From Capsulimonadales bacterium (GTDB lineage: Bacteria; Armatimonadota; Armatimonadia; Armatimonadales; Armatimonadaceae), in assembly GCA_033762295.1 (NCBI GenBank), contig JANRLW010000066.1, positions 1-12,892 on the forward strand: a stretch of DNA of 12,892 nucleotides, given 5' to 3'. The translations under genes were made by a program, and so were the position numbers. The notes under the pieces are model-generated. The model had not been told where the DNA came from. It did not search any database and saw nothing but the letters and a program-made list of their open reading frames with translations. Below are positions 2,923 to 10,000 of the stretch, in pieces. The first letter of the stretch is position 1; each line of letters begins with the position of its first letter.

Positions 2923-4803
2923 ATGAAAGAGCGGTGGCGGATCGAAGGCGACGGCGTCGTCTGGGACGTCGCGACGGAACCTCGGCTTCCCCATGAGGAT
3001 CATGTCGAAATGAGCGGGCGAAAGGTCAGTGTGATCGTCCGTTACCGGGTCGATGAGAATCGCCATCTCCGGCTTACCCGTGAAGTGATCTGGCCGATGC
3101 TCCGTCTGCGCGAGGGCGATGTCCGCGGGTATCTGCGCCGCACCGTTCATGGGCTTCCGGTGGTCGCCACGGATGGCCGACTCTGGGAGGCCGGAACCGT
3201 CCGCCGCGTCTTCTTCGACGGACGGCTGACCGTCGACTTCGATCCTCAGGACGGCCTCGCCGCTCGTTTGACCCTCAGCGTTCAGGGCGACTACGTGGAA
3301 GCGACGCTGACGTTCTCCGCCGAACAGGGACCGTCGCCGTCGCTCTCCTGCCCGGAGACCGGCATCGAGATGGAGACAGGTGTCTATGGCGAGTATGAGA
3401 TCCGGCGATGGTGCGCGATTCGGGGGAACGAGGCCCGGGAGATGATCCTGGCGACCCTCTCCCGACCGGGCCTGCAACCTTTCTCCTCGCGGGATCGAAC
3501 CTGGCTGATTCGGGAGGTCCGCGACGAAAAACTGGTCCTCGAAACGCCCGATCCGGTCCTTAACACCGCGTTCTCCTTCGCCAAACTGCGGGCCGCCGAA
3601 TCGCTGTTCGAGACGAAAATGGGATTGGTCCACTCGCCGGGCGGGGGGCGGTACTATGGCGGCGTCTGGAACAACGATCAGTGCGAATATGCCAATCCCT
3701 TCTTCGCCTACCTCGGCGAGGAGGATGCCCGTCTGGCCGCTCTGACCGCCTTTCGCAACTTCGTTCCTTATATGACGACCGATTACACGCCCATTCCCTC
3801 GTCTCTGGAGATGGAAGGAACGATCGCCTGGTGCGGGGCGCGGGATCGCGGTGACGCGGCGATGTACGCCTCCGGCGCGACCCGGTACGCGCTGGCCCTC
3901 GGAGACCGCGCGATTGCCGAGGAACTCTACACGCCGATCGCCTGGTGTCTGGAGTACTGTCGTCGAAAGGTGAACGACCGGGGAGTGGTGGCGTCCGATA
4001 GTGATGAACTGGAGAACCGTTTTCCGTCGGGCGATGCCAACCTTTCCACCGCCTGTCTCTACTACGACGGGCTGCGTCGCGCCGCCGACCTGGCCGCCGA
4101 TCTGAACCGGGCGGAGGACGCCGCGAACTACGATCATCGGGCGTCGGAACTGGCCGGGGCGATCGAGGCGCATTTCGGGGCGACGGTCGAAGGGTTCGAA
4201 ACCTACCGGTACTACGACGGGAACACGACCCTGCGCGCCTGGATCTGTCTGCCGCTGGCGTTCGGCGTCGGTGGCGCTCCCGAACGAACGGCGGGAACGC
4301 TCGATGCGCTCTTCTCCCCGAAACTGTGGAGCGTCGACGGGCTGGCGACCGAGTCCGGAAAGCCCGACTTCTGGGATCGTTCCACCCTGTACGCCCTGCG
4401 CGGCGCGTTTTTCGCGGGCGACACCGAACGGGCGTTCGCCCACCTGACGGCCTATTCGCGTCGCCGCCTGCTCGGAGAGCATATTCCGTACGCGGTCGAA
4501 GCGTCTCCGGAGGGAGGACAGGCGCATCTCTCGGCGGAATCCGCTCTCTACGCACGGGTGATCGTCGAGGGAATGTTCGGTTTCGTCCCGATCGGCCTGC
4601 GCTCGTTCATTCTGACGCCGCGCCTTCCCGACGGCTGGAACCGCATGGCGCTCCGTCGATTCGACGCTTTCGGCCACCGCTTCGATATCGAGGTCGAACG
4701 CCGCTCCGATAAGGTGTCCGTCCGGATTACGGACACCGCCGGAGCGGTCCTATCCGAGATGACGGGGGATTTCGGTCGGGCCTTCGGATTCCGTCTACCC
4801 TGA
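2923..4803 (+). CDS. Six-hairpin (alpha/alpha)6 glycosidase-like protein, specificity unknown (626 aa)
   Basis: GGAGGAG RBS. Motifs [67 protein letters not shown], and a C-terminal PRLPDGW beta-domain typical of six-hairpin glycosidases. No signal peptide. Confidence 0.8.
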
Positions 4804-4951
4804 CACCGACAAAAAGCAAAAATACCGTTTCCGCCCTTTTTTCGCCGTCCGGAGTACAAAAGCGGTTGAGGAAAACGGGCCCAATCCTCTCCAAATACCC
4901 AAAAACAGCCAAAAATCAAATCAATTGGGATTATTTCGGAGGATCGGAACG

Positions 4952-6253
4952 ATGTCCGCCACTGCTGTTACAAATGCCGTCGTAAAAGAAGCGCGTTATG
5001 TCCTGACCAATATTGGGAATAACAACAATAAGTTCTGGAATATCCGGCTTTTTGCCGATGGTTCCTGTGAAACGCACTGGGGACGGGTCGGCGAGGAAGG
5101 CCAGCGCAAGTCGGTAACCGGCGCGGGCGAGGGTTTCTTCGATACCAAATGCCGCGAAAAGGCGAACAAAGGATACCAACCGCAGAAAACCCTGGCCAAT
5201 ACCGCCGAATCCGCGAAATCCATGGCAGGCGATCAACTGGCGAAGGTCGCCGCCGAACAGATCGTTACCAACTCCCCCGAAACGCTGAAACTGGTCACCT
5301 ACCTGGCGAAGGTGAACGTCCATCGGATTCTGGAAGCCACCACGCTCACCTATGACGAGTCGAAAGGAACGTTCTCCACTCCTCTGGGAATCGTCACCGG
5401 CGAAGGAATCAATGAAGCGCGAACCCTTCTTGCCGAAATCTCCGATCTCGTGGTCGTCGGGAACTACACCGACCACGCGTTCATCTCCCGACTTAACCAG
5501 TATCTGATGTTGATCCCCCAGAACATCGGCCGCGCCAAACCCGATCCGAAAGCGCTTTTCCCCGATGTCGCCGCCGTCCAAAAGCAGAACGGTATTCTCG
5601 ACTCCCTGGAGGCCAGCCTGCAGAACGTTCTTGCCGCCGCCAACGGCGAGGAGAAAAAGGAAGTCGCCGCCCCGAAACTGTTCGCCGCCCGACTGGAACT
5701 GGTGGAGGACCCGAAAGAGATCGATCGTATCCGCCGCAAGTACCGCTCCACCCAGCAATCGATGCACGCCTGCGCCCACCTGGATGTCAAGCGCGTCTTC
5801 CGGGTGAGAATCGACGCGATGAACGACGCCTTCGAAAAGGAGGGCGCGGCGATCGGCAATGTGCAGGAACTCTGGCACGGCACCCGCGCCTCCAACCTCC
5901 TGTCGATCCTTCGCTCCGGATTCGTCATCCCCGCCGCCAACGCGCCCCACTGCACCGGCCGGATGTTCGGCAATGGCGTCTACTTCTCCGACCAGTCGAC
6001 CAAGTCGCTGAACTACGCCTACGGCTACTGGCAGGGACAGGCGGACGATCACTGCTTCATGTTCCTGGTCGATGTGGCGATGGGCCGCTCCTACACCCCG
6101 AAATCCTGGCAGGAACGCCTTCCGCTGGCGGGTTACGACAGCACGTTCGCCAAAGCCGGTCACTCCGGGGTCGGGAATAACGAAATGATCGTTTATCGAA
6201 CCTGTCAGATCAACCCCCGTTTCCTGGTCGAATTCGGCCGCTCCGGAAAGTAA
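4952..6253 (+). CDS. Bacterial poly(ADP-ribose) polymerase-like protein: WGR + PARP regulatory (helical) + catalytic domain (433 aa)
   Basis: Start assigned to ATG 4952 (GGAGG RBS). WGR domain: NNNNKFW...HWGRVGEEGQ. Helical domain: TPLGIVT...LNQYLMLIPQNIG. Catalytic motifs LWHGT (H309), TGRMFGNGVYFSDQSTKSLNY (Y344), FMFLVDVAMG, YDS and NNEMIVY (E411) give an intact H-Y-E triad. Confidence 0.95.
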   Translation: MSATAVTNAVVKEARYVLTNIGNNNNKFWNIRLFADGSCETHWGRVGEEGQRKSVTGAGEGFFDTKCREKANKGYQPQKTLANTAESAKSMAGDQLAKVAAEQIVTNSPETLKLVTYLAKVNVHRILEATTLTYDESKGTFSTPLGIVTGEGINEARTLLAEISDLVVVGNYTDHAFISRLNQYLMLIPQNIGRAKPDPKALFPDVAAVQKQNGILDSLEASLQNVLAAANGEEKKEVAAPKLFAARLELVEDPKEIDRIRRKYRSTQQSMHACAHLDVKRVFRVRIDAMNDAFEKEGAAIGNVQELWHGTRASNLLSILRSGFVIPAANAPHCTGRMFGNGVYFSDQSTKSLNYAYGYWQGQADDHCFMFLVDVAMGRSYTPKSWQERLPLAGYDSTFAKAGHSGVGNNEMIVYRTCQINPRFLVEFGRSGK

Positions 6254-6286
6254 CGTCGGAATTTACGAAATTACAAAGAGGCAAAT

Positions 6287-6967
6287 ATGTTCAACGTTCA
6301 GCCCGATCCCGGAAGTCACGGTCCCGGTTTCCAACAATCCCTGATCGATGAAGTCGAGGCGGAGGTGAACCGCCGGATCGATGCCGGAGAGTCGTTTACG
6401 GCGTTCGATATCAGTCGCGCGGTTCAGGCGGCCGGTGTCCGCGAGCGGCACCGGAACCTGAAGGTGATTGTCCATGATATGTTCGAACGCGGCGATATGC
6501 CCGGATATACACGGACGCAGATCACGCTGCCGGGAGGCGAGCAGCCGTTGCTCTACCATCCGGACAACACGGCCCCGGCCGGGAATCGGTTCGCCGTCGC
6601 CAGCAACGCGCCGTCGCGGGCGGCCGGTATCGCCCGTCACATCGCCACCATGTTCGGACAGCGGTCCGCGGGGCCGACGCCACGGACCGGCAGTCCGGAC
6701 GGTGCGAACCGGCTCCGTCTCCCCCTCTCGGTGTTGCGGACGGCCGGGTTCCTGCCGGGAGACACCGTGCATATCGCCCGGGACCGCAAAACCCGCTCCC
6801 TGACGATCAGCGCGCGCCCGGCCAACGCCCCGGATACCCGCCCGACCCGTGCCCATCGCCTCGGTAACGGAAACCTTCGTCTCACGGTCGATGCGGCCAT
6901 CGCGGGTATTTCGCTCCGGATTACCGTCGTCGCGCCGGGACGGATCGAAGTCACCCCTCTGTCCTAG
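6287..6967 (+). CDS. Hypothetical protein: possible winged-helix-like N-terminal domain plus AbrB/SpoVT/MraZ-like C-terminal region (226 aa)
   Basis: ATG with GAGG RBS, 33 nt after the PARP stop. N-terminal FTAFDISRAV...RHRNLKVIVHDMF...YTRT...LYHP. C-terminal DGANRLRLPLSVLRTAGFLPGDTVHI fits the AbrB swapped-hairpin pattern. The CDS is solid; the domain calls are tentative. Confidence 0.75.
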   Translation: MFNVQPDPGSHGPGFQQSLIDEVEAEVNRRIDAGESFTAFDISRAVQAAGVRERHRNLKVIVHDMFERGDMPGYTRTQITLPGGEQPLLYHPDNTAPAGNRFAVASNAPSRAAGIARHIATMFGQRSAGPTPRTGSPDGANRLRLPLSVLRTAGFLPGDTVHIARDRKTRSLTISARPANAPDTRPTRAHRLGNGNLRLTVDAAIAGISLRITVVAPGRIEVTPLS

Positions 6968-7014
6968 CCGATATCCTGGCTCTCCGGGCGGACGACGGAG
7001 GAATCGTACGGTCG

Positions 7015-7043
7015 GACAGGGAACCCTAGGGTTCAACCCTGTC
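7015..7043. promoter_or_regulatory. Intergenic palindrome / extended inverted repeat
   Basis: GACAGG-[GAACCCTAGGGTTC]-AAC-CCTGTC: perfect 14-bp palindrome (7021-7034) flanked by a further 6-bp inverted repeat, ending 15 nt before the ATG at 7059. Confidence 0.5.
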
Positions 7044-7058
7044 AGTGAAAAGTCCGAC

Positions 7059-10000
7059 ATGAAACGCGTTCTGCTCGCCACTCTCTGCGCCTTGCTTCCG
7101 ATCGCGGGCAGCGTCCTCGCCCAGGTAAGGATCGCTGCCCCGTCCGCCGCTCCCGCCGCCACCCCGGAAAACCTCGAGTTCTTCGAAAAGCGCGTCCGAC
7201 CCCTCCTTCTGGAAAACTGCGCGTCCTGTCACAGCGGGAACCAGCCCCTCGGCGGATTTCGCCTCGATCCGATCGCGGATATCCTTAAAGGAGGGACCCA
7301 CGGTCCGGTCCTCGTCGGACGAGACCCCGAGAAAAGTCGCCTGATCCGCGCGATCCGTCATCTTCCCGGTGTCGCCGCCATGCCCCCGTCCGGCAAACTC
7401 TCCCCCGATCAGATCACCGTACTGACGGAGTGGGTCCGGCGCGGCGCGCCCCTTCCGGCTCCGGCGGCGCGAAAAGCCGCAAACGCCAAAACCTCCGGCG
7501 GGTTTCCGCTGGAACTGCGCCGGCAGCACTGGGCTTACCGACCGATGCGTCGTCCCGCCGTTCCCCCGGTCAAAAATCGGGCGGTCATTCGCAACCCCAT
7601 CGACGCGTTTCTCCAGGCTCGACGGGAATCCGCCGGAATCCGCCCCGCCCCGCCGACCGACCGGCGAACCCTTTTGCGGCGGGTCACCTACGACCTGATC
7701 GGGCTGCCGCCCACCCCCGCCGAGATCAACGCCTTCCTTGCCGATCGCTCGCCGAACGCCTACGAAAAGGTGGTCGAGCGACTCCTCGCCTCGCCCCATT
7801 ACGGCGAACGCTGGGCGCGCCACTGGCTGGACCTCGTTCGCTATGCCGAATCGCTCGGCCATGAGTTCGATTACACCATTTTCAACGCCTGGCGGTATCG
7901 CGACTACGTCATCCGCGCGTTCAATGCCGACGTTCCCTACGACCGGTTTGTCACCGAACATCTGGCGGGTGACCTGTTGCCCGATCCGCGCTACGATCGG
8001 GTGACCGGCGAGAACGAATCGATTCAGGCGACCGGTTTCTTCTGGCTCGGGGAGGGGAAACACTCGCCGGTCGATGTGCGTCAGGAGCAGGCCGACCGGA
8101 TCGATAACCAGATCGACGTGATCGGCAAGGCGTTCCTCGCCCAGACGGTCGCCTGCGCCCGCTGTCACGATCACAAGTTCGATCCGATCCCGACCCGCGA
8201 CTATTATGCGCTCTACGGCATCCTGAAAAGCTCCCGATTCCAGCAGGCGATCCTCGACGCCCCCACCCGCTTCAATCCGGTTCGTTCCGAAATCGCCGCC
8301 GAGTTACGGACCGTCGACCGTGTCGAACTCGCCGACCGCTGGAAGGAGAATCTGACACGGATCGACGAAAAGCGGCTGGAATCCCTGCTGCCCCCCGGCC
8401 CGACCACCGAAAAGCCGATCGCTCCGATCAACGAATGGAAGGGAACGGGACCGGCCTTCGCCGCACTGGCACGGACCGGCGACCTGATCGTCAGTCGTGA
8501 CGCTCACCATCTGCCGCCGACCCTCATCGCCCGTCCGACCGCGCATTCCGCCCTGCACACCCGACGGTTCGCCGGTATCCTTCGCTCCCCGACGTTCACC
8601 ATAGACCGTGACTACCTGCATCTTCGGGTCGCCGGGAAGAACACCCGGGTCTATATCATTGTCGATAACTTCCTCATGATCCGCGACCCTCTTTACGGCC
8701 CGCTGATCCAATCCGTCGATGATCCGCGCCCGCACCGCCGGTCGGTCGATCTGCGTCGCTGGAAGGGACATGAAGCCTATATCGAAGTCGCCGACTCCCC
8801 GGTGCCGCATCCGGGCACGATCGACGCGCCCGTTCTGCCCGAATCGGCCGGGCAACCGAGCGACGCCTGGATCGCCCTCCACGACGCCTTTCTCTCCGAC
8901 ACGGACGAACCGGCCGTATCGGCCCATCCGCTGACCGGTCTCGCTCCCGCCGACCGTCGGCAGGCGATGGTCGCCGCCCTGGAGCGATGGGTCCTCCGGG
9001 AAACCGCCGAAAGTGATACGCCCGCCCTCGAACTGTGGGACGCCCTGCTGCAGGCCGGACTGCTCGATGTCTCCTCGCTCGGGCCGACGATCGAGCGAGT
9101 GACCGCCCTGGAGGCGACCATTCCCGTTCCCCGCCTCAGTCTGGCGATGACCGAAGGCACCGGCCGGAACGAGCGTGTCTTCGTCCGGGGCAGTCACCGG
9201 ACGCGGGGTGAGGAAGCCCCCCGTCTGCGCCTTGCCGTCTGCTTCAACGAAACGGATCGCACCCCGACTCCGACCGGCAGCGGACGCCGGGAACTGGCGG
9301 CCCGAATCGCGTCCCCGCGCCACCCGTTGACCGCGCGCGTCCTGGTGAACCGTCTCTGGAAGCATCACTTCGGCGTGGGGATCGTTCCCTCCGTCGATGA
9401 TTTCGGCCATATGGGCGAGAAACCGAGCCATCCCGAACTGCTCGACTGGCTGGCCGGCGAGTTAGTCCGCCAGCGGTGGAGCATCAAACGGATGCACCGG
9501 TTGATGGTGCTGTCGAACACTTATCGCATGAGCAGTCGGGCGTCGGACCCGGTCGCCGAGCGCAAAGACCCGAAGAACGTCCTGCTGCACCGGATGTCGG
9601 TGCGTCGCCCGGAAGCGGAGGTCATTCGCGACTCGTTGCTCGCGGTATCCGGTCGTCTGAATCGAACCCTTTTCGGCCCCGGCGTCGCGCCGTTTCTCCA
9701 GCAGCAGGACGGACGCGGCTTTCCGCCGACCGGGCCTCCGGATGGCGACGGTCGCCGGACCCTTTACCTGCAGATCCGGCGCAACTTCCCGTCGCTGTTC
9801 CTGACCGCGTTCGACTTTCCGACGCCGTTCACGACCATCGGGCGACGCAGCGTTTCCAACGTCCCGGCGCAGGCGCTGACCATGATGAACAGCGACCTGG
9901 TCTGGCAGCAGGCCGAATTCTGGGCGAAACGCGTTCTGGCGGAGAGAAACGGCGCGCCCGCGTCCGCCGTGATCCGCTCCCTGTACGAGTCCGCCTACGG

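Follow-up and report, generated by a model that had tools for sequence, protein, structure and literature searches.

Catalogues of PARPs from bacteria and phages go back more than 10 years, to our knowledge without a known inducer, target or pathway. A contig of a Capsulimonadales bacterium, on which a PARP gene is followed at once by a second, uncharacterised gene, raises the question of whether the two genes belong together and which process they serve. We analysed the window, that is, the whole stretch of 12,892 nucleotides, together with related loci from genomes, metagenomes, plasmids and phages. A preliminary description of this DNA had proposed a two-gene ADP-ribosylation cassette acting in defence or in the response to DNA damage, in which the partner would be a substrate, regulator or antitoxin.

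By its sequence, the first gene encodes an intact PARP, as first proposed, with a WGR, a probable helical and a catalytic domain, an enzyme of an already known kind (Table 1). Pfam models matched the WGR domain (E = 1e-9, 38.7 bits against a cut-off of 22) and the PARP catalytic domain (residues 255–381; E = 4e-29, 102 bits against a cut-off of 26.7), and the PARP_reg model matched residues 142–220 below its cut-off (E = 1e-4, 22.8 bits against 26.8). This region aligns to the helical domain of PARP1 and is helical in the predicted model too. H309, Y344 and E411 showed no variation across 11 aligned relatives, and the closest solved structures in a PDB sequence search were PARP1, PARP2 and PARP3 (E = 5e-22 to 3e-17). 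The nearest named locus bearing the same pair is that of Armatimonas, whose PARP is 68% identical, which makes Armatimonadota the probable phylum of the host. Human PARP3 and PARP2 have the domain layout in common with the window PARP, which differs from them in having no zinc fingers, BRCT domain or basic N terminus and in its shorter catalytic C-terminal part. Human PARPs act with histones and HPF1; the window PARP instead has a dedicated winged-helix partner. Bacterial PARPs described in the available parts of earlier reports share its domain layout, its H-Y-E triad and the presence of erasers in the same genome. Those parts catalogue 28 to 72 bacterial PARPs, describe the Herpetosiphon enzyme as DNA-dependent and name no target (PMC8120803, PMC4245714, PMC5966428); one published account, in its accessible portion, calls the role in vivo unknown. 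The same portions mention no partner gene, regulon or retron link.

Much of the layout first reported for the locus was confirmed. The partner has its own ribosome-binding site and starts 33 nt after the PARP gene (6254–6286, up to the partner ATG), the DNA upstream of PARP is AT-richer (GC 0.50 at 4801–5200 versus about 0.62), a palindrome bounds the pair, and Pfam identified the unrelated flanks as a glycosidase-like gene and a PSCyt/DUF1549/DUF1553 gene. A scan for sigma-70 promoters and terminators gave no signal over chance and no terminator-like site 3′ of the pair, and repeats within 4700–7100 belonged to chance-level families only. The further statement that the window has no eraser or TROVE gene was correct for the six window proteins scanned with Pfam; elsewhere, the genome encodes one bacterial PARG, three macrodomain proteins and four ARH proteins. 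Neighbours of viral and metagenome loci included genes for ARH (12 of 37), Nudix (7 of 37) and RNA ligase (7 of 37).

Table 1. Coordinates of the features of the PARP–partner locus in the window
Feature	Coordinates	Strand	Basis
Bipartite promoter-like motif TTTCCG-N17-GGAGTA, 95 nt before the PARP start; putative ECF-type -35/-10	4828-4856	+	motif placement
PARP ribosome-binding site GGAGG	4938-4942	+	sequence
PARP ORF, 433 aa	4952-6253	+	ORF call, Pfam scan, alignment, structure model
PARP domains: WGR aa 18-79; probable helical ~142-230; catalytic with H309-Y344-E411	within 4952-6253	+	
Partner ribosome-binding site AAAGAGG	6275-6281	+	sequence
Partner ORF, 226 aa, without Pfam or PADLOC match	6287-6967	+	
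PARP-associated winged-helix domain, aa 14-95	6326-6571	+	conservation, structure model, fold matches
Tandem AbrB/MraZ-like swapped-hairpin domain, aa 122-226	6650-6964	+	profile matches, fold matches
Perfect 14-bp palindrome, not terminator-like, may be part of the next gene	7021-7034	.	sequence

The partner is a member of a large undescribed family, built of a winged helix and an optional tandem AbrB/MraZ-like domain. No Pfam model matched the protein, and the family profile matched 1,045 clusters (50% identity) at E ≤ 0.001. A structure model built from a 134-sequence alignment (pLDDT 84) shows two domains with a loose linker between them: a Fur/PadR-like winged helix, with a middling best fold match (Z 8.1, rmsd 4.2, 80 residues aligned), and the AbrB/MraZ-like domain (Z 7.5, rmsd 2.8, 93 residues aligned), the second repeat of which is degenerate relative to the family consensus. 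Fold matches of this order (Z 7–8) are middling and give no function, and structure comparison revealed no distinct PDB family specific to the winged helix. Conservation in the family centres on the winged helix (F37, T38, A39, D41, H55, K59, H63, Y74, R76 and Y90), and numerous partners consist of a winged helix without the AbrB part. The preliminary description had pointed to a putative DNA-binding protein and to AbrB folds; the AbrB-type fold held up (MazE_antitoxin is matched by 21 of 134 family members, and the family profile matches AbrB at E = 1.6e-4), but this part is optional and the conserved, PARP-linked part is the N-terminal winged helix. The tandem swapped-hairpin fold is shared with MraZ/AbrB regulators, from which the partner differs in carrying it behind a winged helix and in being tied to PARP, not to a division cluster. 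Co-folding of the PARP, entered without an alignment, with winged-helix residues 10–105 gave a score of 0.00, which speaks neither for nor against an interaction.

The link between PARP and partner is strong, even where the genes are apart. In a phylum sample of 401 genomes, with PARP counted if it scored over the cut-off, the partner was present in 32, PARP in 32 and both in 30; in a thirty-first partner genome the PARP is split at contig ends, so that 31 of the 32 partner genomes have one. The exceptions in this sample were G268, with a partner and no PARP, and G026 and G234, with a PARP and no detectable partner. PARP lay no more than 1.5 kb upstream of the partner at 22 of the 30 loci first retrieved, and in 25 of the 32 partner genomes it lay upstream at a distance of about 2 kb or less; in six further partner genomes the two genes lie apart and both are retained. 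Distribution within families is patchy (9 of 23, 9 of 29, 7 of 27 and 5 of 32 genomes, kin not being independent). Outside the phylum, metagenome partner loci, counted without dereplication, had a same-strand PARP upstream in 35 of 54 cases; in 14 of the remaining 19 the upstream DNA is shorter than 1.6 kb. Three distant PARP clades have the partner, and PARP and partner tree distances correlate moderately (Mantel rho 0.42, n = 54, again with kin that are not independent). Together with 56 of 91 viral loci (see below), these counts bear out the linkage on which the idea of a two-gene cassette depended.

A promoter-like motif upstream of PARP also occurs ahead of other genes. The search covered the upstream regions of 26 PARP loci and of 8 partner genes not directly behind PARP. 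In the form TTCCG-N17-nnAGT, the motif precedes 12 PARP genes (families f1 and f8) and all 7 separated partner genes tested (L038 left out), against a shuffled rate of 1.1%, as counted in the same upstream regions in which it had been spotted by eye; it is absent at 14 of the 26 PARP loci (genera g13, g15, g20, g70 and g173). Total matches in this genome are not enriched. Their placement is: 27 of 67 matches with the 17-nt spacer lie in sense orientation within 250 nt of a gene start, versus 26 of 263 with spacers of 15, 16, 18 or 19 nt (Fisher p = 3e-8). Among twenty downstream genes of this genome, hand-picked from the 70 top sites and not annotated blind, family scans identified uvrB, gyrA, ssb, radA, recR, mutS and ruvB, as well as genes for ERF, SRAP, YjbR, a GIY-YIG protein, a Nudix hydrolase and a DNA methylase. 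The gene behind another site we take to be uvrA, and that behind one control-spacer match is presumably RecJ-like. A further site lies about 400 nt ahead of recA, inside the preceding gene. In relatives, the motif preceded uvrB at none of 25 usable loci (of 30) and radA at just 5 of 25, so membership of the regulon is not conserved at the level of single genes.

One motif target (G000:C9:23227-23997, L275) encodes a weakly ECF-sigma-like protein (Sigma70_r4_2, E = 1.5e-6; CnrH, E = 0.024 over residues 81–249). Genes of this type are present in 13 of 13 f1, 5 of 5 f8, 3 of 8 f2 and 0 of 4 f5 genomes, and the motif precedes them at 15 of 22 loci (from the set of L275 and L340–L361), compared with 0–2 for control spacers. 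The hallmark of an ECF regulon, an oriented bipartite motif with a fixed spacer that also lies ahead of the sigma gene, is thus found here. The genome also encodes LexA, and the ECF-sigma-like gene may run an undescribed DNA-damage regulon beside it. In G381 and G040, an ECF-sigma-like gene comes first in a cluster that also contains an HTH-like gene, a UvrD helicase-nuclease and the partner. Loci L048:3496-9341 and L037:1621-9235 have a sigma-like gene, an HTH-like gene, a UvrD–PD-(D/E)XK fusion and a partner; the fusion has an IrrE-like N terminus in L048, and L037 additionally has PARP and a PolX-type helix-hairpin-helix gene. At G000:C6:94900-95230 (L279), lexA and a small membrane-anchored gene, the latter under the motif, point away from each other, and the AAACAAAA-type repeats between them are a possible LexA box. 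The small gene resembles yneA-type division inhibitors. Eight f2 loci (L052–L059) lack the sigma-type motif upstream of PARP and have there a conserved palindrome, TTCTCA-N5-TGAGAA, a candidate operator.

Because the motif is common to the operon, to separated PARP and partner genes, to the sigma-like gene and to repair genes, a DNA-damage regulon is favoured over a toxin–antitoxin or defence cassette, and of the two roles first offered for the pair it is the DNA-damage option that gains support. We give roughly even odds (about 0.5) to the reading that the pair is a DNA-damage-inducible ADP-ribosylation module, which a sigma-like factor would induce and DNA breaks would activate and in which the winged helix would be the acceptor or targeting subunit. 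Judging from motif placement, the ECF-type sigma factor would transcribe the operon from TTTCCG-N17-GGAGTA along with the DNA-repair genes. As in PARP1–3 and the Herpetosiphon PARP, binding of DNA breaks by the WGR domain would release the helical domain and render the PARP active. The winged-helix protein, linked to PARP as described, would serve as its dedicated co-factor on DNA, with a role as acceptor or targeting subunit the most likely; the DNA binding of this protein would change once it is ADP-ribosylated, and the AbrB/MraZ-like half may add a second DNA-binding or oligomerization surface. The PARG, macrodomain and ARH enzymes encoded in the genome would undo the mark.

The best-surviving alternative, which we regard as unlikely, is an anti-phage or toxin–antitoxin system in which the winged helix restrains the PARP until phage DNA ends or a retron sensor free it to deplete NAD+ or modify a host target. 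The patchy distribution (32 of 401 genomes) would suit such a system, and DNA-damage promoters can drive defence genes. Type XIII retrons also speak for it. At metagenome locus L116 (5978–12054), HEAT-ARM_XIII and SWIM_XIII genes precede a fusion of the winged helix to RT_XIII; an ARH-like gene lies upstream, and the PARP gene downstream is truncated to its first 86 codons; 16 of 17 relatives of the N terminus of this fusion carry an RT domain. In genus g70, a 1,260–1,330-residue protein encoded between PARP and the SWIM_XIII/RT_XIII genes begins with the winged helix. L116 and L032, L033, L034, L049 and L050 are type XIII retron loci with a fused winged helix beside a PARP gene, and because such fusions occur in other lineages a defence role retains some probability. 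The available part of the type XIII retron description (PMC7736814) has the RT_XIII, SWIM_XIII and HEAT/ARM genes that related loci combine with a fused winged helix, and PARP does not occur in its main text as available; the window has no retron.

Several observations weigh against a defence role at the locus itself. RT_XIII, SWIM and HEAT/ARM genes, present at L116 and the g70 loci, are absent from the window, and the SWIM and RT genes of this genome sit on other contigs than the PARP pair. An obligate tie of the pair to type XIII retrons was rejected, as SWIM_XIII occurs in 65 of the 401 genomes yet in just 22 of the 32 PARP genomes. PADLOC HMMs matched neither protein (0 families at E ≤ 1) and the flanks are non-defence genes. 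PARP precedes the partner, exists alone and can be far from it, and erasers are encoded in the genome. The stand-alone defence cassette and the antitoxin role that had been suggested for the partner are both unsupported, in view of PARPs without a detectable partner, the six genomes in which the genes are apart, the lack of PADLOC matches and the erasers elsewhere in the genome. DarTG likewise pairs an ADP-ribosyltransferase with a second gene, but the transferase in the window is PARP-type and its partner has a winged helix and an AbrB-like domain, not a macrodomain or NADAR hydrolase. The AbrB-type DNA-binding domain of the partner family is shared with type II toxin–antitoxin systems that have AbrB antitoxins; unlike these, window-type PARPs are also found without a detectable partner, where distant partners may be missed.

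A second alternative, that the partner does no more than regulate transcription of the PARP gene or its regulon, without contact with the enzyme, appears quite unlikely. Both of its domains are regulator-like (PadR/Fur and AbrB/MraZ) and a conserved palindrome lies before PARP in the eight f2 loci, but the clade of the window showed no such palindrome upstream of PARP, and the retron RT/ARM fusions, the many winged-helix-only partners and the downstream position of the gene are hard to fit with autoregulation alone.

The pair also occurs in viruses. The partner family is found in phages of 395–595 kb, and in a reverse test from the PARP 42 of 91 viral loci encoded the winged helix, in every case downstream of PARP and on its strand, rising after three iterations to 56 of 91, 54 of them downstream. 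Single-protein viral scans using the close partner family gave no match, and whole-record searches did not detect the partner in 8 of 10 phage records negative at the PARP locus. It was also not detected in 4 of 5 PARP-bearing plasmid or phage records, among which distant partners may be missed, and two queries gave no match in plasmids. The PARPs of phages XacN1, Xoo-sp13 and phi4:1 are three-domain proteins 33–36% identical to that of the window, from large phages according to the accessible parts of their reports (PMC7824862, PMC9503650); Xoo-sp13, 05F01 and phi4:1 have no detectable partner-family member, unlike the window pair. A complete 395-kb phage (G401; L088, L165) carries the partner gene twice, first 4.8 kb after PARP and again about 240 kb away, and the partner gene of a 595-kb phage (LR756511.1:184211-184915, L149) contains a TAG that may be a recoded stop. 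A distinct 530-residue huge-phage PARP clade (L090:8376-9968 and relatives) has a long cysteine-containing N terminus and is often followed by the partner, an AAA ATPase, ARH and an uncharacterised 300-residue gene. Three-domain PARPs recur on 0.1–1.2-Mb plasmids of Pseudomonas, Variovorax, Vibrio and Bacillales, where most are annotated simply as WGR proteins; three of these plasmids were searched whole and yielded no partner. Small genes that look winged-helix-like and gave no match to the partner family directly follow PARP on a Bacteroidota plasmid (L163:6122-6400) and in phage phi4:1 (L160:4659-5123), and a link of the Bacteroidota-type gene (phi4:1 gp030, Chondrinema) to the family was not borne out (hhalign probability 0.4%, no HMM match).

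That the module is phage-derived, serving host take-over or protection of phage DNA and of little benefit to the chromosomes that acquired it, would agree with its presence in 395–595-kb phages, the many phage-like metagenome loci and the ease with which 91 viral PARP loci were found, but is similarly improbable given that chromosomal copies are intact, under a host promoter motif and kept across families and that both genes persist after separation. Under the DNA-damage-inducible reading, huge phages would keep the same PARP–partner module for their own use.

The enzyme is thus a known one, and the partner family and its context are undescribed in the literature searched: the full texts, as far as available, describe neither the partner nor the motif nor the retron fusion, and the supplementary neighbourhood tables of PMC9503650 and PMC7824862 may list the pair.

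We tentatively propose a broader interpretation, which is probably too wide as a whole: the winged helix of the partner would be a portable PARP-docking and acceptor domain, a prokaryotic counterpart of the chromatin targets of PARP1–3. In bacteria, PARP would be part of an undescribed DNA-damage response under an ECF sigma factor; huge phages would also have the module, and certain type XIII retrons would have the domain fused to their RT or ARM scaffold so as to recruit PARP as an effector, forming an undescribed retron–PARP defence subtype. The locus supplies a candidate inducer (the promoter and sigma factor), a candidate acceptor (the conserved partner) and candidate erasers for bacterial PARPs. 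It is relevant to the question of whether DNA-break PARP signalling is older than eukaryotes. It also suggests that some type XIII retrons may have an effector in PARP and that a sigma-driven response to DNA damage may operate alongside LexA.
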